Shown here: positions 17,865-29,323 of the stretch, piece by piece
How the letters are laid out: each line of letters begins with the position of its first letter
How positions within the stretch are numbered: the stretch's first letter is position 1
Assembly (NCBI GenBank): GCA_963705355.1
Contig: OY970070.1
Span: forward strand, 287,741-351,740
Origin: an uncultured Thermoplasmata archaeon
GTDB lineage: Archaea > Thermoplasmatota > Thermoplasmata > UBA10834
Reading direction: 5' to 3'
DNA: 64,000 nt
Translations under genes and position numbers: made by a program
The notes under the pieces: model-generated
Databases searched by the model: none
What the model saw: only the letters and a program-made list of their open reading frames with translations
Told to the model about the DNA's origin: nothing

Positions 17865-17874
17865 GAATACTGAG

Positions 17875-17948
17875 TGCGGCCGCCGGGATTTGAACCCGAG
17901 TTTTGAGCTTGGCAAGCTCAAGTGATAACCAGGCTACACTACAGCCGC
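17875..17948 (-). tRNA. tRNA-Gly (anticodon GCC)
   Basis: Reverse complement GCGGCTGTAGTGTAGCCTGGTTATCACTTGAGCTTGCCAAGCTCAAAACTCGGGTTCAAATCCCGGCGGCCGCA folds as a cloverleaf. Anticodon loop TTGCCAA, T-arm CGGGTTCAAATCCCG, 7-bp acceptor stem. Confidence 0.85.
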
Positions 17949-20135: not shown

Positions 20136-20296
20136 GAGCCTCGCTCAACGACAAAAACCCATCGTCTTGGCGGGTCTGCGCATAGGCGACATTCTGGTCG
20201 TCTCAGGGCAGCCAGATGATGACCAAAGGCTTAAAAGGCATCGAGGTCATCTACCTGCAATCCCAGGTTTCGAACCCCCAAACGGAGGGCTCATTG

Positions 20297-20830
20297 ATGG
20301 CTGAAGACGACCTGATGAAAGTCAAAGTATGCTTTATCGGAGATGCAGGCGTTGGCAAGACGAGCCTGATCAAGAGATTTGTACTGGACGTGTTCGACGA
20401 CCGGTACATCGCAACGATTGGAACGAAGGTCACCAAGAAGATCGTCGACGTCGACGGCCAGGCGAAGGTCATGATGCTTGTCTGGGACATAATGGGCCAG
20501 AAAGGCTTCAGAGAGCTCCTGCGCGAGGCATATTTCTTCGGCGCCCACGGCGCCATTGCAGTCTGCGACCTCACGAACAAGGAGACACTCGAAGAGCTGA
20601 GATACTGGATCAAGGCCCTGACTGATGTTGCGGGCGATGTCCCTATCGTGTTCGCCGGCAACAAGGTCGATCTCGAGAACGACAGGGTCATCAAGGAGCA
20701 GGACCTGCAGGAGCTGGCTTCGAAGTACAAGGGGAAGTCATTCTTGACGAGCGCGAAGACAGGTCAGAACGTTGAGGCCGCGTTCAAGACCCTCGCTGAG
20801 GCGATGTCCGAAAGAATGAAGAGCCAATAA
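20297..20830 (+). CDS. Ras-superfamily small GTPase, Rab/Ras-like (~178 aa)
   Basis: G1 GDAGVGKT, switch-I T (YIATIGT), G3 WDIMGQ, G4 GNKVD, G5 TSAK, and Rab-like YFFGAHGAI. Start chosen at ATG 20297, 7 nt after a GGAGGG RBS; the track start 20216 is a likely over-extension. Confidence 0.8.
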   Translation: MAEDDLMKVKVCFIGDAGVGKTSLIKRFVLDVFDDRYIATIGTKVTKKIVDVDGQAKVMMLVWDIMGQKGFRELLREAYFFGAHGAIAVCDLTNKETLEELRYWIKALTDVAGDVPIVFAGNKVDLENDRVIKEQDLQELASKYKGKSFLTSAKTGQNVEAAFKTLAEAMSERMKSQ

Positions 20831-20891
20831 TGGGCTAGTTTTCATTCCCAGTATTGATAACGACTTGAGAACACTTATAAGCCCAGCACAG

Positions 20892-20901
20892 TCTATAAAA
20901 T
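20892..20901 (+). promoter_or_regulatory. TATA-like box (TCTATAAAAT) upstream of the giant surface-protein gene
   Basis: AT-rich decamer in the 150-bp intergenic region between the GTPase gene and the surface-protein gene. Confidence 0.3.
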
Positions 20902-20982
20902 CGCACGAGAGGCGAGGCTAAATTGGCTGTGCGTTTGGGCAAACGCCTTATAGTGGTAAGTCAAACACAGTCCTTCGGACAC

Positions 20983-23900
20983 ATGAGGATACTCGCTACC
21001 TTCTTCGCCCTTTTCCTTGTCGCATCGCCTTTTCTTCCCTTGGCCAACCATAGCGTTCGCGACGCGGAGGCTGCTTCCCTTTCTTCTTGGACTAGAGTGT
21101 TCTATCTTCATGAGGGCGTAGCGTACGTCCCTTGGGGAACCTATGACTGGTTGAACTCATCGGGCCCCGCGAACCCTTCTCGAACTGACTACGACGGTGA
21201 CGGCGTCGAGGGCATCACCCTCAGACATCCGGGACTATGGCAAACATGGCATGGCTGGATCTTGTATCCGAGAGTTGGTTCTGACGTTTCCGTGTCAGGC
21301 GATATGGGGGTGAATGTCTGGGCGAGAAGCATCGATAACTCGCCGGGAATTGTCATGCGGGCGCGATTCTTTGACATCACAGCAGGTCAATGGTCGGACC
21401 CACGTAATGGAATTGAATTGGGCAATGCGACGCTTCCGCTCGCGGGTCCGGACTACTCTGTGTACCAGCTCTATTCTTTCACGATTGCTAGCGTATCATA
21501 CGTTCTCCCATCTGGTCACTATCTTGCGCTGGTCATCGAGCGACGGGACAATGATAACAGTCGACTCGTGATCTACTTTGACAAAACAGACTATGCCTCT
21601 TACATCACTCTCAACACAACGACTTTCGTGAACGTGGATTCCGCCCGGACCGTGGATTCGTACGGTTCTCCGCGGGGAACCTTCTCAGATCAGGAGAGCG
21701 CCGTTGTTGAGGCGAACGTGTCAGATCCGTTTGGAGCATATGACATAGTGGCAGCCTATGTTCAGGTTTTGAACGAGAGCGGTGTTGTCAACGCGACTAC
21801 TTCGATGAATCTCGTCCAAACAGATCCTTCCCAGCCTGGCTACTGGAAAAGTTACAGCCTGGCACTGTCACTCTTGCCTGAGGGCAGCTACACAGTGAAT
21901 GTCACCGCTAGTGATCCTCAGGGCACGCCCACATGGATGAATCTGTCTCTCACGATTGTGTCGGTCGATCACTTCCTTGTGTCGGCCCCTTCAGCAATCG
22001 TTGCCGGCTCACTCTTCTCGATGACGGTCTCGGCTCTGGATTCCTCCAACTCCATCATAACGAATTGGGTTGGCCAGGTTCAGCTGGCTGCATACGAACC
22101 GGATCTGGTGACGCCGGGGGTGAGGCTGTTGGCTCGGACACTTCTGGTCTTCACGCCGGGTGACGGAGGTCAGGTGACTATATCGGATCAGAACTACACT
22201 TTCGGCGAGGACACGATTCGCATCAAGGCTTCGTCTGGAGTCCACGTTGGCTGGAGCGGGCTCATAGCTGTTTCCAGCGGGCCGGTCATCCGCATCCTCA
22301 TCTCTCCGCCGGGTCCTGAGACCGTCGCTTCAGGAACCTCAAGGGCCTTCACTGCTACGGGCCTTGATGTTCTTGGAAACATCAACACGACTTGGTCTCC
22401 GAATTGGACCGTGCCGTCCAGCATCGGCACGATTTCGGGAGCCGGCCTCTCAGTGACCTTCACAGCTTCGTTGGTTGGCTCGGGTAATCTGAGGTGCAAG
22501 AACGATTTGACAGACGCGAACAGGACCGCTCTTATTAATGTTGTTGTGGGAGAGTTGGCAAGGATTGTCATCTCTGCTCCGTCTGATCCTCTCCTGATTG
22601 GAGAGAACGAGACTCAAGCCCTTACTGCGACTGGCTACGATGTCAATGCAAATCTGGTGGATATCACTGGCGCTATTTGGCGTACCAACACTTCCGGGGC
22701 TGTCAATGGCAGTGGGCCGTCCGGAGTCTATCGGGCGGGATTCATCCCTGAGGTTGGTGTCATCAGCGTCAGAGTCGGCGGCATCGTTGGGGTGCTTAGT
22801 GTTGTCGTTGTTAGCGGTATCCATGGACCCTGGCTCAGCACGATACCGGAGCAGATTCAGAACGAGGACGGAGGGACATGGGAGCTTAGCCTTACTGGGT
22901 ATTGGCATGACGACGAGGGGACCGAGTCCCTCAGATGGTCGGTCGAGGACGTCAATATGTCGCTCTATATCGTCACACATGATCCGAATTCGAATGCCGT
23001 GCTGAGGCTGACCACCCAACCGAATCAGAACGGGGAGGACGCGCTCCGGCTTTGGGTTGTGGACAGTGGAGGCTATTGGACATATCAGTGGGTGACCGTC
23101 AAGATACTCCCGGTAAATGATGCGCCTCAATTCGTCAACAATCCTCCGACGCGACTCAGTGTGAGATTCGACGACCCCTACGTATTCGACTACACGTACT
23201 ATGTCTGGGACGTTGACAATGCGAAGTCGGAATTGGGGATGAGCGCATCCTTGCCCAGCTCCAGCGGCGGCAGCATCGAATTCGATGGACTCATTGCCAC
23301 CTTCCTGTTCCCTTCGGACCCAAGCCGTGGCTCGACCTACTTCGAGATTGTCACTCTTTCAGTGATAGATCCCGCCGACGCTTCTTCTCAATTGAAGTTA
23401 GCCGTATATGTCACTTGGGACTACCCTCCTCGCTTGAACACCAGCCTGCCCAACCAAACGCTGTATGAGGGGGACGTCCTTCACTATTGTTTTAACCTCG
23501 ACTCATATTTCTATGATGTTGAGGGCTCGTACCTATATTACTCCTACGGCTTCCAGCATCTCCAGGTCTACATAGCCTGGAACCACTCGGTCTACATGAA
23601 CGCGACGGAGGAGTGGTCTGGCACGACCGACGGCGCGTTCACTGCCACAGACCCTGAAGGTGCTCTGAAGACCGACATGATCACAGTCACCGTGATCGCA
23701 GTCAATGATGCGCCGATTGTGAGAAGTCCAGGATCTATTCTAGTGAAATACAACGTCACATACTACCTCTACCTGAGCCAGTATGTGTTCGACCCGGACA
23801 ACTCAATTGATTCCTTGACATTCACGTTCAACGACACGCACGTGAAGGAGACATCGACCTTCATGGGCAGCTACCGACTCGAGATACTGTTTCCGGGAAG

Positions 23901-25149
23901 CATCCTCCCTGATTCCGATATCTTCCTTGGCCCATACCTTGTCTATGTTCACATGGAGGTTACTGATCCTGGTGGTCTGATGACCCCCTGCAATTTCACG
24001 GTCTTTGTGACGGACGACGCTCCGCCGACTGTGATTGCCCCGAATCCGGACGCGACTTACTACGCATTCCCTGAGAACTCATATCTGAACAACTCGCTGA
24101 GGATGTACGATTTGTTCTGGGATCCCGACGATTCGATGCTCAATTTCACAATCGTGGGGAACAGATTCGTTCACCTCCAAATCTACTCAAACGGTGTCGT
24201 CAATCTGACTTCAGATGTGAATTGGTCGGGAACGGAGGTCCTCACAATCACGGCAAAGGATTCACATCTCGGCTGGGCATCGTTCCGCGCGTACGTGACG
24301 GTCACGCCAGTCAATCAGGCTCCTTGGATCTATCCAATCCCCGACATGATCGTCAAGACGGGGCATATTGATGCGCCATTCTACATCCTCGACTACATTT
24401 ACGATAGCGACGATGCTCCGGAGAACCTGACGATTACTGCATCTCCTGCTGAGAGCGTGGCTGTCGTCGGAGGGTTCCTCTACGTCACGCTCCCGCACGG
24501 AGTTGATGTCATAACGGTCACCATTCAGGCGAGCGACGGCAAATTGCAGTCCAATGTCAGAATCTTCAAGGTTGGTGTGGAGAAGACGATGGCTGAGAGA
24601 ATCGGCTGGCCCTATACGTTCCCGCTTGTGTTGCTGGCGGCAGGCGTCGCGGGCTACTTCCTGGCGAGCCGGATCCCGCGGCCGTACGCGCTTGAGAACA
24701 TCTTCCTCATTCACAACGATGGCAGGCTCATTGCACATGTCACCAAAGAGGAGAACACTAATCTGGACAAGGATGTGGTGAGCGCCATGTTCACGGCAGT
24801 CCAAGAGTTCGTCCGGGACTCCTTCCAGAAAGGTGAGGTGGGACTCAAGAAGCTTGAGATCGGTGACAAGAGAGTCATCATCGAGAAGGGGCAGTGGGCT
24901 TACGCCGCGTTGATATACTCTGGTTGGCCGGCGAAGGAGACCTTCGAGAACCTCCCCATGCTATTGAGGGACATCGAGGAACGCTACAAGGGCAGGCTGG
25001 AGAGGTGGAACGGCACCATGAAGACCGTCGTGGGGGTCGACAAGATGCTCCAAGAGTTCATGGCGGATACCTACAGGCCGGGAACGTGGCACGAAGAGGA
25101 GGAGATCGGTGAGGAGCGGTGGGTCGACATCCTCGAGAAGGAGGCCTAG
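20983..25149 (+). CDS. Giant (~1390 aa) secreted/membrane-anchored surface protein: signal peptide, N-terminal DxDxDG-containing domain, cadherin-like repeats, one C-terminal TM helix, cytoplasmic Roadblock/LC7-like domain
   Basis: Signal peptide MRILATFFALFLVASPFLPLA. Many N-x-S/T sequons. Repeated cadherin-type linkers (VNDAPQF, AVNDAPIV, PVNQAPWI) with DxD/DxNxD motifs. TM helix WPYTFPLVLLAAGVAGYFLA, then IFLIHNDGRLIAH...DVVSAMFTAVQEF...GLKKLEIGDKRVIIEKGQWAYAALIYSG, which matches the Roadblock/LC7 pattern. The track start 20923 is a TTG; ATG 20983 gives a cleaner signal peptide. Confidence 0.7.
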   Translation: MRILATFFALFLVASPFLPLANHSVRDAEAASLSSWTRVFYLHEGVAYVPWGTYDWLNSSGPANPSRTDYDGDGVEGITLRHPGLWQTWHGWILYPRVGSDVSVSGDMGVNVWARSIDNSPGIVMRARFFDITAGQWSDPRNGIELGNATLPLAGPDYSVYQLYSFTIASVSYVLPSGHYLALVIERRDNDNSRLVIYFDKTDYASYITLNTTTFVNVDSARTVDSYGSPRGTFSDQESAVVEANVSDPFGAYDIVAAYVQVLNESGVVNATTSMNLVQTDPSQPGYWKSYSLALSLLPEGSYTVNVTASDPQGTPTWMNLSLTIVSVDHFLVSAPSAIVAGSLFSMTVSALDSSNSIITNWVGQVQLAAYEPDLVTPGVRLLARTLLVFTPGDGGQVTISDQNYTFGEDTIRIKASSGVHVGWSGLIAVSSGPVIRILISPPGPETVASGTSRAFTATGLDVLGNINTTWSPNWTVPSSIGTISGAGLSVTFTASLVGSGNLRCKNDLTDANRTALINVVVGELARIVISAPSDPLLIGENETQALTATGYDVNANLVDITGAIWRTNTSGAVNGSGPSGVYRAGFIPEVGVISVRVGGIVGVLSVVVVSGIHGPWLSTIPEQIQNEDGGTWELSLTGYWHDDEGTESLRWSVEDVNMSLYIVTHDPNSNAVLRLTTQPNQNGEDALRLWVVDSGGYWTYQWVTVKILPVNDAPQFVNNPPTRLSVRFDDPYVFDYTYYVWDVDNAKSELGMSASLPSSSGGSIEFDGLIATFLFPSDPSRGSTYFEIVTLSVIDPADASSQLKLAVYVTWDYPPRLNTSLPNQTLYEGDVLHYCFNLDSYFYDVEGSYLYYSYGFQHLQVYIAWNHSVYMNATEEWSGTTDGAFTATDPEGALKTDMITVTVIAVNDAPIVRSPGSILVKYNVTYYLYLSQYVFDPDNSIDSLTFTFNDTHVKETSTFMGSYRLEILFPGSILPDSDIFLGPYLVYVHMEVTDPGGLMTPCNFTVFVTDDAPPTVIAPNPDATYYAFPENSYLNNSLRMYDLFWDPDDSMLNFTIVGNRFVHLQIYSNGVVNLTSDVNWSGTEVLTITAKDSHLGWASFRAYVTVTPVNQAPWIYPIPDMIVKTGHIDAPFYILDYIYDSDDAPENLTITASPAESVAVVGGFLYVTLPHGVDVITVTIQASDGKLQSNVRIFKVGVEKTMAERIGWPYTFPLVLLAAGVAGYFLASRIPRPYALENIFLIHNDGRLIAHVTKEENTNLDKDVVSAMFTAVQEFVRDSFQKGEVGLKKLEIGDKRVIIEKGQWAYAALIYSGWPAKETFENLPMLLRDIEERYKGRLERWNGTMKTVVGVDKMLQEFMADTYRPGTWHEEEEIGEERWVDILEKEA

Positions 25150-26843: not shown

Positions 26844-27019
26844 GGATTGTCTGGCGTGATACCAACTGTACGACTTAAACCTTTATCATTTTGGGGCTTC
26901 TCATTCAGCCAGTCCCTGGGGATACCGATTTCGGAGGACTGAGGTCGCTTTTTGAAGCCGTTTGGTCCCCATCTCTCTCCTCATATACCCATCGCAAAGC
27001 ATTAAACTGTGCGCAATTC

Positions 27020-29323
27020 ATGACATCCACCCAGATGTCTAGCTCCTCCGCTCGCCAGGCAGTCACTGTCACGCTGAGGCGTGACTTGGGGCTTCTCGAC
27101 GTGACCATGATCGGCGTGGGCGCGATGATAGGCACGAGCATATTCGTGCTCATCGGAGTGGTCACTCAGGATGTCGGTGCCGGGATTCTGCTGGTTTTCT
27201 TGTTCAACACCGTTGTGACAATCTTCACGGCGACCACGTACGCGGAATTGGGATCGTCGTTCCCCGAGGCGGGCGGAGGCTACTTGTGGGCCAAGAAAGC
27301 ACTTCCTCATCCGGCGGAATTCATCTCTGGTTGGCTTTCATGGTTCGGCCACACGGTGGCATGCAGTTTCTATTCACTTGGATTCGGCTACGCCGCTGTT
27401 GCGATTGTTGACTATTTGGGCCTCAGCATTCTCGGCCTTTCATCCGCCATTCTTGTGAAACTCTTTGCTGTCATCGCCATGGCGTTCTTCCTTGGGATCA
27501 ACTACATTGGCGTGGGCACGACCGGGAAGACAGGAACCTCTGTCACGATTATCCAGGTCCTGATCATCGTGTTCTTCGTTGCCTTCTCATTGATTAGCGC
27601 ATTCGACACCAAAGGGATTCACGCCTTTGACAACCTGGAGCCGCTTCTGCCAGCCGGAAAGGGCTATGACAGCATCTTCATGTCGATGGGCTTCACGATT
27701 CTTGCCTTTGAAGGATACGAGATCGTGGTCCAATGCGGCGAGGAGGTCAAAAACCCAAAGAAGAATATCCCGCGGGCAATATTCGCCTCAGTCGCCGTGG
27801 CCTCACTGCTCTACATCTTGGTCGCTCTTGCGTGCTTTGTGAAATATCCCGCGATGGACATCGGGAACGAGGGGGAGAAAGCGGTGTTCTTCACAGCTGC
27901 TCATGTCATCCCGATCGCTGGAGCTCCGTTGCTGATATTCGGAGGACTGCTGTCTGCCATGGCCGCTCTGAACGCAACCGTCTTTTCGTCTTCTCGCGTC
28001 AGTTTCGCAATGGGAAGGGACGGGTCGTTGCCAAAAGTATTCGGAAAGATACACTTAGTCCGCAGGATTCCGCACAATGCCATTCTTATCACGGGAGCGA
28101 TCATGTTCGTCATGGCGATGTTCTTTCCGCTGAAGGTCGTCGTGGCGTCCACATCGGTCGTGTTCCTTCTTCTGTTCACGCTCGCGAACCTCGCATCAAT
28201 AAGGTTAATTCCCAGGCTGACAGAAATCGACGTCGGCTTCAGAACGCCGTTCTTCCCCTTGTTTCCAGTCATCGGAGTGATCACGAAGCTCGCCTTGGCC
28301 GTATCGATATGGTGGCTCGTCCCGGAGGCATGGTATGTGGCTCTCGTGTGGATTGCAATTGGTTTTGCCGTGTCCGCGTTTGCGAAGCCTAGAGAAGAAT
28401 ACGAATCGATTGTTGCGCAACGGAGAGTCCCGCCGCGGCCTCTTACGAAGGAGCAGATCGAGCGGTTCAGAGTTTTCCTCGCGCTCGAGGATCTCGGCAA
28501 TCTTAGGCTCATCGAACTTGCGGGCATATTCGCGAGGTACTTCAACGGCGACCTCACTGTCAACAAGATCGTCGAGGTTCCGAGAGCGATGCCGCTGGAA
28601 ACCATCAGCAAGGAGTACATTGATGAAATCTCGATTAGTCTCAAGAAGACAGTCAAGGTTGCCCCCTCCACCGTTGCTGTCAGACCAGTCGTATCGGTTT
28701 CTTATGACGTTGCTGGCTCCATCTTGGATCAGACCAAGCATGAGGCCGCGAACCTATTGGTCCTAGGCTGGAAGGGAACGCGGAGGAGGGGTAAGACGAT
28801 CCTGGGTCGCAACCTCGACAGGGTAGTCCGTGAAGCCCCCTGCGACGTCGTCATAATCAAGACTGCGAGACTGAGCAAGAACATCGAGAATATCCTGTTG
28901 GTCTCTGGAGGTTATTTCGAAACCAGAAAAGCGCTGCTGCTCGCGCTGCCGATCGCCAGGGAGTTCGGTGCAAAGATAGAAATACTCTCGGTTGTGACGG
29001 ACGACAAGCAAGTGGAGCTGATGCGAGGAAACGCGGAGAGATTGGGCCACATGGCCAACAGGGTGAAGGTGGCTAACGAGGTCAAGTACGTGTATTCCAG
29101 ATCCTTCGTGAACGCAGTCCTGGACCGCGTTCAGCATTCTGACATCCTCGTGATGGGTGCGGGCCCGCAGTCAGTCTTTGAGCGCACGTTGTTCGGGGCG
29201 ACATATGACAGAATAATCCGGTCGGTCGATGTTCCGGTTCTGGTCGTGAAAACCGCCCGCGCTGGCAAAGGGGGCACACAGTCGCTGGTTTCCTCGAGGC
29301 CGCCGATACCGGGACTGGACTAG
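27020..29323 (+). CDS. APC-superfamily amino-acid permease fused to two C-terminal universal-stress-protein domains
   Basis: 12-TM APC core (GVGAMIGTSIFVLIG ...) followed by two Usp-like modules (LVLGWKG..., LVSGGYFE...VLVVK). Start moved to ATG 27020. Confidence 0.8.
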   Translation: MTSTQMSSSSARQAVTVTLRRDLGLLDVTMIGVGAMIGTSIFVLIGVVTQDVGAGILLVFLFNTVVTIFTATTYAELGSSFPEAGGGYLWAKKALPHPAEFISGWLSWFGHTVACSFYSLGFGYAAVAIVDYLGLSILGLSSAILVKLFAVIAMAFFLGINYIGVGTTGKTGTSVTIIQVLIIVFFVAFSLISAFDTKGIHAFDNLEPLLPAGKGYDSIFMSMGFTILAFEGYEIVVQCGEEVKNPKKNIPRAIFASVAVASLLYILVALACFVKYPAMDIGNEGEKAVFFTAAHVIPIAGAPLLIFGGLLSAMAALNATVFSSSRVSFAMGRDGSLPKVFGKIHLVRRIPHNAILITGAIMFVMAMFFPLKVVVASTSVVFLLLFTLANLASIRLIPRLTEIDVGFRTPFFPLFPVIGVITKLALAVSIWWLVPEAWYVALVWIAIGFAVSAFAKPREEYESIVAQRRVPPRPLTKEQIERFRVFLALEDLGNLRLIELAGIFARYFNGDLTVNKIVEVPRAMPLETISKEYIDEISISLKKTVKVAPSTVAVRPVVSVSYDVAGSILDQTKHEAANLLVLGWKGTRRRGKTILGRNLDRVVREAPCDVVIIKTARLSKNIENILLVSGGYFETRKALLLALPIAREFGAKIEILSVVTDDKQVELMRGNAERLGHMANRVKVANEVKYVYSRSFVNAVLDRVQHSDILVMGAGPQSVFERTLFGATYDRIIRSVDVPVLVVKTARAGKGGTQSLVSSRPPIPGLD

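Follow-up and report, generated by a model that had tools for sequence, protein, structure and literature searches.

A predicted longin-fold domain beneath a giant Thermoplasmata surface protein and its Rab-like GTPase neighbor

What might a giant archaeal surface protein carry behind its membrane anchor, and with what might that part work? The question is raised by one ORF on the forward strand of the 64-kb stretch of Thermoplasmata DNA analyzed here (the window). It opens at TTG 20923 or, more likely, at ATG 20983 and stops at 25149, for a protein of 1388-1408 aa (1388 aa from the ATG). Its C-terminal end, positions 24607-25149, translates exactly as the initial annotation had quoted: WPYTFPLVLLAAGVAGYFLA, then SRIPRPYALEN-IFLIHNDGRLIAHVTKEE...IYSG..., then stop.

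Layout and membrane side of the surface protein

The protein consists of a signal peptide, an Ig/cadherin-like glycosylated ectodomain, one transmembrane (TM) helix and a 160-aa tail, in this order (Table 1). Translation and ORF layout thus agree with the initial claim of a domain lying right behind the TM helix of a giant surface protein; no second copy of the tail domain was found within the window. Pfam matches in the ectodomain were to Big_9 (6.3e-5) and, weakly, to Cadherin_4 (0.002), and the NCBIfam tandem-95 repeat (2e-18) matched three stretches under its curated cutoff. All but one of the 30 N-X-S/T sequons precede the TM segment. The AF2 model that includes this segment has one unbroken 19-residue helix followed by a 5-residue linker. 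Ectodomain stretches 331-349 and 587-619 also reach the hydropathy threshold; both fall among the Ig-like repeats and probably form beta strands, which makes a single TM helix likely rather than proven.

Table 1. Features of the GTPase and surface-protein genes in the window
Feature	Positions	Strand	Basis or remark
Small Ras-superfamily (Rab-like/Rup-like) GTPase gene	20216..20830	+	directly upstream of surface-protein gene
Intergenic spacer, 152 nt, with T-run and TATA-like boxes	20831..20982	+	read from sequence
Signal-peptide-like N-terminus (MRILATFFALFLVASPFLPLAN)	20983..21048	+	hydropathy peak 2.18 over residues 1-22
Ectodomain, ~1185 aa; Ig-like, cadherin-like and tandem-95-type repeats, rich in N-glycosylation sequons	21049..24606	+	
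Single transmembrane helix, likely (WPYTFPLVLLAAGVAGYFLASRI)	24607..24666 or 24675	+	strong hydropathy segment, from residue 1209 or 1213 to 1231
Longin-fold domain, tail residues 7-135	24685..25071	+	predicted structure
Helix α1 (KDVVSAMFTAVQEFVRDS), most conserved stretch of the family	24769..24822	+	
W-x-G signature (W114, G116), loop after α2, most invariant residues of the family	25006..25014	+	
Acidic C-terminal appendage (TYRPGTWHEEEEIGEERWVDILEKEA) and stop codon	25072..25149	+	pLDDT ~55

The cytoplasmic location on which the initial reading depended is supported by the signal peptide with a single TM helix, by a positive-inside bias across 86 family members (2.51 K+R after the TM segment vs 0.88 before it, P=5e-12) and by homolog architectures. 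In bacterial homologs the domain lies across the membrane from a periplasmic OmpA domain, and other homologs of the domain occur in soluble STAND ATPases. When the best 149 cluster representatives were scored, 87 had a TM-like segment immediately ahead of the domain. Membrane tethering had been called unusual; this holds for Roadblock/longin domains generally but not within this family, where tethering is the rule.

Longin rather than Roadblock order in the tail

The tail model, with pLDDT mostly >85, comprises β1 (tail residues 8-16), β2 (21-26), α1 (35-52), β3 (59-65), β4 (68-74), β5 (78-85), α2 (90-106), a short helix (118-121) and α3 (124-135). This is a five-stranded β-meander between one helix and two helices, and its structural neighbors belong mainly to the Roadblock/longin class. 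Because the predicted fold lies clearly within the Roadblock/longin superfamily, the broad placement made by the initial annotation stands, even with no Robl_LC7 or longin sequence match. Within the superfamily, longins follow the order ββαβββαα and Roadblock domains the order αββαβββα (Levine 2013, PMC3747258). The tail has the longin order, reproduced in a second model that includes the TM helix, and lacks an N-terminal helix under the sheet; the helix that precedes it is the apolar TM segment. Its top structural matches are SNARE longins and AP sigma subunits, and Roadblock scores did not rise above longin scores even when the TM helix was included in the comparison. The narrower label originally given, Roadblock/LC7, is not supported.

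Sequence comparisons do not support that label either. At a threshold as loose as E<=10, the Pfam Robl_LC7 (PF03259) HMM matched neither the 180-aa tail nor the whole protein, and the longin Pfam families (Longin, Fuz_longin_1, Intu_longin_1 and similar) had none in the window protein. Pfam, NCBIfam and PADLOC scans assigned the tail to no family, and PDB sequences searched with the tail (phmmer) and the family profile (hmmsearch) returned nothing significant. In a diverse set of 49 members, sub-threshold Pfam matches were most often to Robl_LC7 (8/49, best E 0.013) and Fuz_longin_1 (4/49, best E 0.0051), with one member each matching Intu_longin_1 and MAPKK1_Int. When the family profile was aligned by hhalign with single sequences, neither alignment was significant: the probability was 0.2% for Sec22b and 2.4% for DYNLRB1, the latter in register over 80 columns. 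A DYNLRB1 seed revealed no Roadblock ORF among the ORFs of the retrieved family loci.

The eight weak Robl_LC7 matches and the in-register, nonsignificant DYNLRB1 alignment are what a canonical Roadblock/LC7 domain of the MglB type can claim, the preceding hydrophobic helix then being Roadblock α1 instead of a TM segment. We regard this as very improbable: besides the missing Robl_LC7 match in the window protein, that helix is uniformly apolar and is needed to anchor a signal-peptide-bearing ectodomain, it is missing in soluble and bacterial homologs, and the face that Roadblock α1 would occupy is filled by two confident C-terminal helices. The likeness of the tail to longin and Roadblock domains may itself have arisen by convergence or by independent circular permutation.

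Conservation centers on two elements of the predicted longin fold. Across 49 sequences of <42% identity, α1 retains M41 (90%), T43 (80%), A44 (86%), Q46 (90%) and F48 (94%), and D51, S52 and F53 are further conserved residues of this region; both helix faces are involved. In the W-x-G signature, W is kept in 94% and G in 98% of alignment A3, and both are invariant in alignments A2 and A5. The family signature reads FLIHxDGRLI, SxMxTAVQxFxxDSF and IExxYxxxLxxWxG. In solved longin and Roadblock complexes, GTPases sit on the "top", single-helix face (Levine 2013, PMC3747258); by analogy, α1 of the tail would be the counterpart of this GTPase-binding face. The fold could also be read as a PAS/GAF/profilin-like α/β sandwich that senses a small molecule or peptide, with a cytoplasmic ligand and no relation to GTPases. 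Longin and Roadblock folds have been grouped with PAS/GAF-like folds in one super-class (Dey et al. 2016, PMC4917890), and a pocket could be formed by the conserved polar residues H16, D18, H24, D34, D36, Q46 and E73, but we hold such a sensor to be highly improbable.

The separate helical acidic tail of ~70 aa that had been proposed behind the domain is much shorter in the model. Helices 90-106 and 118-135 are modeled with confidence as belonging to the fold (pLDDT ~90-97), and the acidic appendage proper is about the last 25 tail residues (136-160). Its motif EE..EE.WVDIL.KE is kept in close orthologs (alignment A1) only and is absent from distant members.

A large family with recurrent GTPase neighbors

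An exhaustive phmmer search with the tail, over clusters defined at 50% identity, retrieved 3571 representatives at E<=1e-3, of which 1256 passed E<=1e-10. The family is large, unnamed and mostly from Thermoplasmatota, with the domain usually right after a TM helix. With homologs in such number, the tail is a genuinely conserved domain rather than a chance pattern.

A functional context for it is provided by the adjacent gene, which encodes a small GTPase with canonical G1-G5 motifs (GDAGVGKTS / TIGTK / DIMGQ / NKVD / SAK, with T in switch I). Its membership of the Ras superfamily is established by these motifs and by a Pfam Ras match of 2.5e-39 (134.9 bits vs a cutoff of 21.6), next to matches to Roc (1.7e-27), Arf (9e-12) and NCBIfam small_GTP (1.5e-20). 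The best solved relatives are eukaryotic Rabs, led by Rab26 (5e-32) and followed by Ypt6, Rab1, Rab8, Sec4, Ypt7 and Rab35. The initial annotation had left this gene unmentioned. Its real start is probably ATG 20297 (177 aa), which has GGAGGG before it. The gene lies 92-152 nt upstream of the surface-protein gene on the same strand. Past the GTPase stop, the spacer holds TTTTCATT, then TTATAA, TATAAAA and CTTATAGT, the last of these ~30 nt before ATG 20983. With TATA-like boxes in the spacer, cotranscription is not assured, and the two genes may have separate promoters. A conserved stretch upstream of the GTPase gene had raised the suspicion of an RNA gene, such as a tRNA, but neither ARAGORN nor Rfam detected one there. 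Other neighbors in the window are an Asn-synthase-like gene, a DUF885 gene and an amino-acid permease-Usp gene. A known defense system as context was rejected, PADLOC returning no meaningful matches.

Of 14 orthologous loci, 13 have an adjacent GTPase gene; this reflects simple synteny and is therefore not independent evidence. Among orthologs, identity is 74-90% for the GTPase, 48-80% for the tail and 35-52% for the ectodomain, which is thus fast-evolving. The linkage extends beyond synteny to distant loci: where both flanks were visible, a GTPase gene was adjacent in 11 of 33, against 3.4% expected from a background of 7 GTPase ORFs in 498 kb, an approximately tenfold enrichment whose binomial P=6e-9 is confounded by phylogeny. 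No other window gene was shared by the distant loci. GTPase linkage recurs in five architectures, namely Ig-repeats-TM-domain, domain-TM-OmpA, AAA_16-domain-TPR, polytopic TM-domain and short soluble proteins, and the tail domain is the sole element common to them. GTPase and domain distances co-vary over 15 distant pairs (Mantel r=0.59, P=2e-4), with shared phylogeny as a confounder. Natural GTPase-domain fusions were sought among 193 proteins and in a third homolog search, and none was found.

Two thirds of the distant loci have no GTPase neighbor, and on five further metagenomic contigs (P0036, P0040, P0197, P0200 and P0202) no GTPase gene lies near standalone members of the domain. Several genomes also encode multiple domain-bearing surface proteins, with three loci in one MAG. 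Such a distribution would suit a longin tail that works independently of GTPases, as a generic oligomerization or anchoring module tying many Thermoplasmatota surface proteins to a cytoplasmic scaffold or to sorting machinery; the GTPase adjacency would then be a secondary, lineage-specific association. Some longin domains, such as SNARE longins and AP sigma, do function without GTPases, and these top structural matches of the tail bind no GTPase through the α1 face. We nevertheless consider this unlikely, given the approximately tenfold adjacency enrichment and its recurrence, bacteria included, across five unrelated architectures. Moreover, a single GTPase could act in trans for more than one receptor, like eukaryotic Rabs, and absent adjacency is therefore weak evidence.

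A candidate receptor-to-GTPase module and its known relatives

On balance we favor, with moderate confidence, a tail that is a cytoplasmic, membrane-tethered longin-fold domain and a docking or regulatory platform for the upstream Rab-like GTPase. The glycosylated Ig/cadherin-repeat ectodomain would bind or sense an external target, be it a surface, another cell or a polymer, and the single TM helix would relay a change in clustering or dimerization. The longin domain, probably dimeric, would dock the GTPase on its conserved α1 face, recruiting it to that membrane patch and biasing its GDP/GTP state in a GEF-like or GAP-assisting manner. Longin and Roadblock platforms act in this way in Mon1-Ccz1, TRAPP, SRX-SRβ and MglB-MglA. 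For the Thermoplasmata pair, sequence, architecture, fold, family size, cytoplasmic side and gene linkage are documented by the analysis, whereas GTPase-tail binding, the binding face, dimerization and the direction of regulation are all putative.

The nearest precedent is bacterial. Group 1 Rup neighborhoods encode a protein described as "conserved domain of unknown function + TM helix + OmpA", its fold unrecognized at the time, and Rup GTPases of this group lack the G3 glutamine (Wuichet & Sogaard-Andersen 2014, PMC4316618). In two bacterial loci of our set (L062 and L081), the domain matches the window tail with phmmer E values of 3e-21 and 7e-18, in operons of a coiled-coil gene, a domain-TM-OmpA gene, a Ras-family GTPase gene without the G3 Gln and a histidine kinase or GGDEF gene; this is exactly the published Group 1 Rup neighborhood (PMC4316618). 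The window likewise encodes a membrane protein with a homologous cytoplasmic domain beside a Ras-like GTPase. However, the bacterial domain is N-terminal and followed by the TM helix and periplasmic OmpA, whereas the window protein has its huge ectodomain ahead of the TM helix and the domain at its C-terminus. OmpA, the coiled-coil partner gene and a GGDEF/EAL or histidine-kinase output gene are all missing from the window, and its GTPase retains the G3 glutamine (WDIMGQ vs WDMEGR and WDVAGT in the bacterial neighbors).

Known longin GTPase platforms include Mon1-Ccz1, TRAPPC1/C4, DENN, FLCN/NPRL2 and the SRX domain of SRα, and a Lokiarchaeal longin is represented by 8yqg. The tail differs from these eukaryotic and Asgard longins in having its own signature with no significant similarity to any longin Pfam family, in being fused straight to a TM helix and giant ectodomain, and in its occurrence in Thermoplasmatota and some bacteria, its regulatory activity being putative. 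In SRα SRX/SRβ the TM anchor is on the GTPase SRβ and the longin is soluble, whereas in the window the anchor is on the longin domain and the GTPase is soluble. Relative to MglB/MglA and other Roadblock-GTPase pairs (PF03259; actinobacterial conservon CvnB/CvnD), the tail is circularly permuted, without the N-terminal helix or an HMM match, and membrane tethered where the Roadblock partners are soluble; the window GTPase is Rab/Ras-like with canonical motifs, not MglA-like.

Longin domains were long considered absent from prokaryotes (Levine 2013, PMC3747258) and later came to be described as a eukaryote-like signature in Asgard archaea (PMC4917890, PMC10933270). A longin-topology family of thousands of sequence clusters now appears in non-Asgard archaea and bacteria, and through its genetic coupling to Rab/Ras-like GTPases the longin/Roadblock-GTPase partnership gains a broader evolutionary base. 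Our searches of the literature on longins in Thermoplasmata, longin-like bacterial domains and Rup follow-ups found no paper describing the tail domain, and no archaeal transmembrane signaling route of this type was described there. The Thermoplasmata pair suggests simple receptor-to-GTPase signaling outside eukaryotes and Asgard archaea, possibly a route from giant adhesin-like surface proteins to the cell interior in wall-less or S-layer-poor Thermoplasmatota. More tentatively, as an idea we would entertain rather than assert, this prokaryotic longin family, which abounds in Thermoplasmatota and extends to several bacterial phyla, might form a minimal transmembrane receptor-to-small-GTPase module that directly recruits and regulates its GTPase. 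With the same reserve, the module might extend over single-pass and OmpA-anchored proteins, each with a dedicated Rab/Ras-like (Rup-type) GTPase. If true, the longin-Rab partnership of eukaryotic membrane traffic would be neither a eukaryotic nor an Asgard invention, and the "unknown" component of Rup systems, their uncharacterized membrane protein, would gain a structural identity, with both a fold and a role. As a separate observation, archaeal fragments holding just this domain are recurrently misannotated as "OmpA-OmpF porin".

Fold and family of the tail domain

Re-translation reproduced exactly the initial annotation's reading of window positions 24607-25149 (+), which form the C-terminus of one long ORF ending at 25149. 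This ORF starts at TTG 20923 or, more plausibly, at ATG 20983, from which a surface protein of 1388 aa is counted. Its ectodomain matches Pfam Big_9 (6e-5) and, weakly, Cadherin_4, and resembles the NCBIfam tandem-95-repeat model (2e-18, below cutoff). The tail is 99% identical to that at L003, a locus in a MAG labelled Thermoplasmata archaeon.

Features of the surface protein, its upstream neighbor, the tail-domain family and the GTPase-linked loci
Feature	Position or loci	Strand	Remarks
Ras-family small GTPase gene	20216-20830	+	immediately upstream of surface-protein gene; Pfam Ras 2.5e-39, Roc 1.7e-27, Arf 9e-12
Signal-peptide-like N-terminus	protein residues 1-22		
Ectodomain			~1185 aa; 29 of the protein's 30 N-X-S/T sequons; Big_9, Cadherin_4, tandem-95 similarity
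TM helix	WPYTFPLVLLAAGVAGYFLA		one, strongly apolar
C-terminal tail			160 aa
Family signature FLIHxDGRLIxH	β1-β2 hairpin		
Family signature DxDxxSxM(F/L)TAVQxFxxDSF	helix α1		
Family signature GxxxIxIExG			
Family signature IExxYxxxLxxWxG			
Ig-repeats-TM-domain	L030, L038, L039, L044, L051, L075, L079 and others		GTPase-linked
Domain-TM-OmpA	L062 (Halochromatium), L081 (Desulfobulbus)		GTPase-linked
AAA_16-domain-TPR	L078		GTPase-linked
Polytopic membrane protein-domain	L068		GTPase-linked
Short soluble proteins	L066; L001 (one intervening gene)		GTPase-linked

By its sequence, the tail is a strongly conserved domain despite having no match to Pfam or NCBIfam models (to E<=10, Robl_LC7 included) or to PDB sequences. 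Word-indexed searches returned close relatives first and then ones at 27-36% identity, and phmmer, run exhaustively against 1.84 billion cluster representatives, yielded 3571 homologues at E<=1e-3, of which 1256 reach E<=1e-10. A TM helix directly precedes the domain in 87 of the 149 best representatives scored. Family signatures were derived from 49 sequences, each below 42% identity; scanned singly, these most often gave sub-threshold matches to Robl_LC7 (8/49, best E 0.013) and Fuz_longin_1 (4/49, best E 0.0051), with one each to Intu_longin_1 and MAPKK1_Int, a faint apparent echo of Roadblock/longin families. Profile comparison to Sec22b and DYNLRB1 (single sequences) was not significant.

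The AlphaFold2 model of the tail (25-sequence alignment, pLDDT 84.2, pTM 0.80) has the order β-β-α-β-β-β-α-(α)-α, which was retained in a second model including the TM segment (34 sequences, pLDDT 82.6), where the latter is one helix of 19 residues with a 5-residue linker behind it. In the definition of Levine et al. (PMC3747258), longins follow the order ββαβββαα, of which the Roadblock order αββαβββα is a circular permutation; the modelled order matches that of longins and is therefore a longin topology. Comparison values for the tail model were 11.8 for TRAPPC2, 11.3 for TRAPPC4, 11.2 for AP sigma, 10.9 for a Lokiarchaeal longin, ~10 for Ccz1/Mon1, NPRL2/3 and FLCN, and 9-9.6 for SRX. The models thus predict, with high confidence, a fold of the longin/Roadblock class with longin order. 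The earlier description as Roadblock-like holds at superfold level but not at the level of family (no Robl_LC7 match) or topology. Likewise, most of the supposed ~70-aa helical acidic tail is α2 and α3 of the domain, the acidic appendage being only the ~25 last residues. A true Roadblock domain with the hydrophobic helix as its α1 is improbable, given the missing Robl_LC7 match, the strong apolarity of that helix by hydropathy, its modelling as a 19-residue TM with longin order retained, and Roadblock scores that stay at or below longin scores when it is included. A PAS/GAF-like ligand sensor seems very improbable.

The acidic C-terminal peptide HEEEEIGEERWVDILEKEA (window 25072-25146) keeps EE..EE.WVDIL.KE in an alignment of close orthologues and is missing from distant members; its form, an acidic stretch then W-x-x-I/L, resembles a short linear docking motif. 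Several top cluster representatives carry two or three domain copies. A 2181-aa protein (L033, 4934-11476) has three, one closing each ~500-aa coiled-coil-rich repeat unit with no TM ahead, and a 582-aa membrane protein (L049, 9083-10828) has two in tandem. Four archaeal fragments (P0003, P0011, P0014, P0016) consist only of a TM helix and a tail-type domain and bear the JGI name 'OOP family OmpA-OmpF porin', which probably passed from bacterial domain-TM-OmpA homologues via the common unnamed domain.

Membrane side of the tail

A signal peptide and one TM helix would place the tail in the cytoplasm. The single TM carries a caveat because ectodomain stretches 331-349 and 587-619 in the repeat region, both probably β-strands, also reach the hydropathy threshold. 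The second, GVISVRVGGIVGVLSVVVVSG (window 22741-22839), is very hydrophobic (TM-like score KD 2.26) and probably belongs to an Ig-like domain; were it a true TM segment, the topology of the N-terminal half would change. Charges flanking the TM are uninformative in the window protein alone. In the 86 family members that have a TM-like segment shortly before the domain (median gap 6 residues), K+R in 12 residues was 2.51 on the domain side vs 0.88 on the other (Wilcoxon P=5e-12). Independent agreement comes from bacterial homologues ordered domain-TM-OmpA, whose peptidoglycan-binding OmpA domain is necessarily periplasmic, and from others with the domain within soluble AAA_16/TPR STAND ATPases. 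A cytoplasmic location is thus very likely.

Linkage to a Rab-like GTPase

The initial annotation did not mention the upstream GTPase gene, whose product has canonical G1-G5 motifs, DIMGQ among them. Among proteins of solved structure, its best matches are to eukaryotic Rabs (Rab26, 5e-32; next Ypt6, Rab1, Rab8, Sec4, Ypt7 and Rab35). Translation likely starts at ATG 20297, preceded by GGAGGG. Given a T-run and TATA-like boxes in the 152-nt spacer before the surface-protein gene, the two genes may be separately transcribed. Ahead of the likely start, the in-frame stretch KGLKGIEVIYLQSQ (window 20216-20296) is kept in some orthologous loci (L003, L009, L010) without a preceding ATG; it may encode an N-terminal extension begun at a different start codon or act as a conserved regulatory DNA/RNA element, and ARAGORN and Rfam found nothing there.

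With each species represented by one genome, a scan gave 574 relatives, and nearly all of the 80 best loci come from Thermoplasmata or Thermoplasmatota, three being bacterial. Among orthologues (L003-L018), the GTPase gene is the immediate upstream neighbor in 13 of 14 loci with a visible flank, the fourteenth (L003) having a split ORF; this is not independent evidence because the whole neighborhood is syntenic. Of 33 distant loci (tail 30-41% identical) whose two flanks can both be seen, 11 have a Ras-like GTPase ORF within 600 nt, vs 3.4% expected from outer flanks (7 GTPase ORFs in 498 kb; binomial P=6e-9, uncorrected for relatedness). No other window gene is common to the distant loci, and the GTPase-linked loci span five architectures with the tail-type domain as sole common element. 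In 15 distant pairs, distances between the GTPases correlate with those between the domains (Mantel r=0.59, P=2e-4; phylogeny is a confounder), a point in favor of a module. Identities between the window and L004-L018 are 74-90% for the GTPase (20216-20830), 48-80% for the tail (24667-25146) and 35-52% for the ectodomain (20983-24606); the outer face changes at a far higher rate than the intracellular parts, which would fit a conserved intracellular partnership behind it. Points against a universal link are the absence of a nearby GTPase in two thirds of distant loci and on five further metagenomic contigs (P0036, P0040, P0197, P0200, P0202), and of GTPase-domain fusions among 193 proteins and in a third homologue search. 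An anchoring or oligomerization module acting independently of the GTPase is a less probable reading, and we favor, with some reservation, a tail that works with the neighboring GTPase.

In the soluble STAND-type ATPases of L037 (8684-11659) and L078 (1425-4145), with AAA_16 and TPR/MalT-like repeats, the domain is inserted just past the P-loop and splits the AAA_16 match in two; L053, L064, L070, L073 and L076 encode similar ~990-aa proteins. At L078, a divergent Ras-like GTPase lies 122 nt upstream.

Published systems and proposed mode of action

The bacterial loci L062 and L081 share the order of a small coiled-coil-like gene, domain-TM-OmpA, Ras-family GTPase and an output gene (a hybrid histidine kinase and a GGDEF protein, respectively), exactly matching the 'Group 1 Rup' neighborhood of Wuichet & Sogaard-Andersen, who left the fold of its membrane-protein domain unnamed (PMC4316618). 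Their GTPases lack the G3 glutamine, whereas the window GTPase keeps it. Surkont & Pereira-Leal described single Rab-like GTPases from Aciduliprofundum and from a Thermoplasmatales archaeon, with no neighborhood analysis (PMC4915359). Prokaryotes were described as devoid of longin domains in 2013 (PMC3747258), and later reports placed them in Asgard archaea (PMC4917890, PMC10933270). Our literature searches found no follow-up paper on the Rup-system domain and none on longin-fold domains in Thermoplasmatota or bacterial Rup systems. Pairing of a Roadblock/longin platform with an adjacent small GTPase is a known principle, and the bacterial operon context has been on record since 2014. New are the predicted longin fold for the Rup-system domain and its membership of a family that is very large, unnamed and centred on Thermoplasmatota. 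New too are the family's dominant form, in which giant single-pass surface proteins carry the domain as a probable cytoplasmic tail, and, in this archaeal lineage, pairing with a Rab-like GTPase retaining the catalytic glutamine.

Solved longin/Roadblock platforms bind the GTPase on the single-helix 'top' face and dimerize via β3/α1 (Levine 2013, PMC3747258), and helix α1 is nearly fully conserved on both faces across the tail-domain family. From this analogy and conservation, we propose that the tail, probably dimeric, would offer α1 to the neighboring GTPase. The input would be the binding or clustering state of the ectodomain; the GTPase would be drawn to the membrane beneath the receptor, and its nucleotide state might be biased by the tail. 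The data favor none of the roles of GEF platform, GAP helper or effector.

The only tRNA in the window is tRNA-Gly (GCC), at 17874-17948 (-). A fusion of an amino-acid permease with tandem Usp domains is encoded near the GTPase/domain pair (26891-29323) and, 31% identical, next to the GTPase at the distant locus L001 (3809-6157), a proximity that may be coincidence or a remnant of older synteny.
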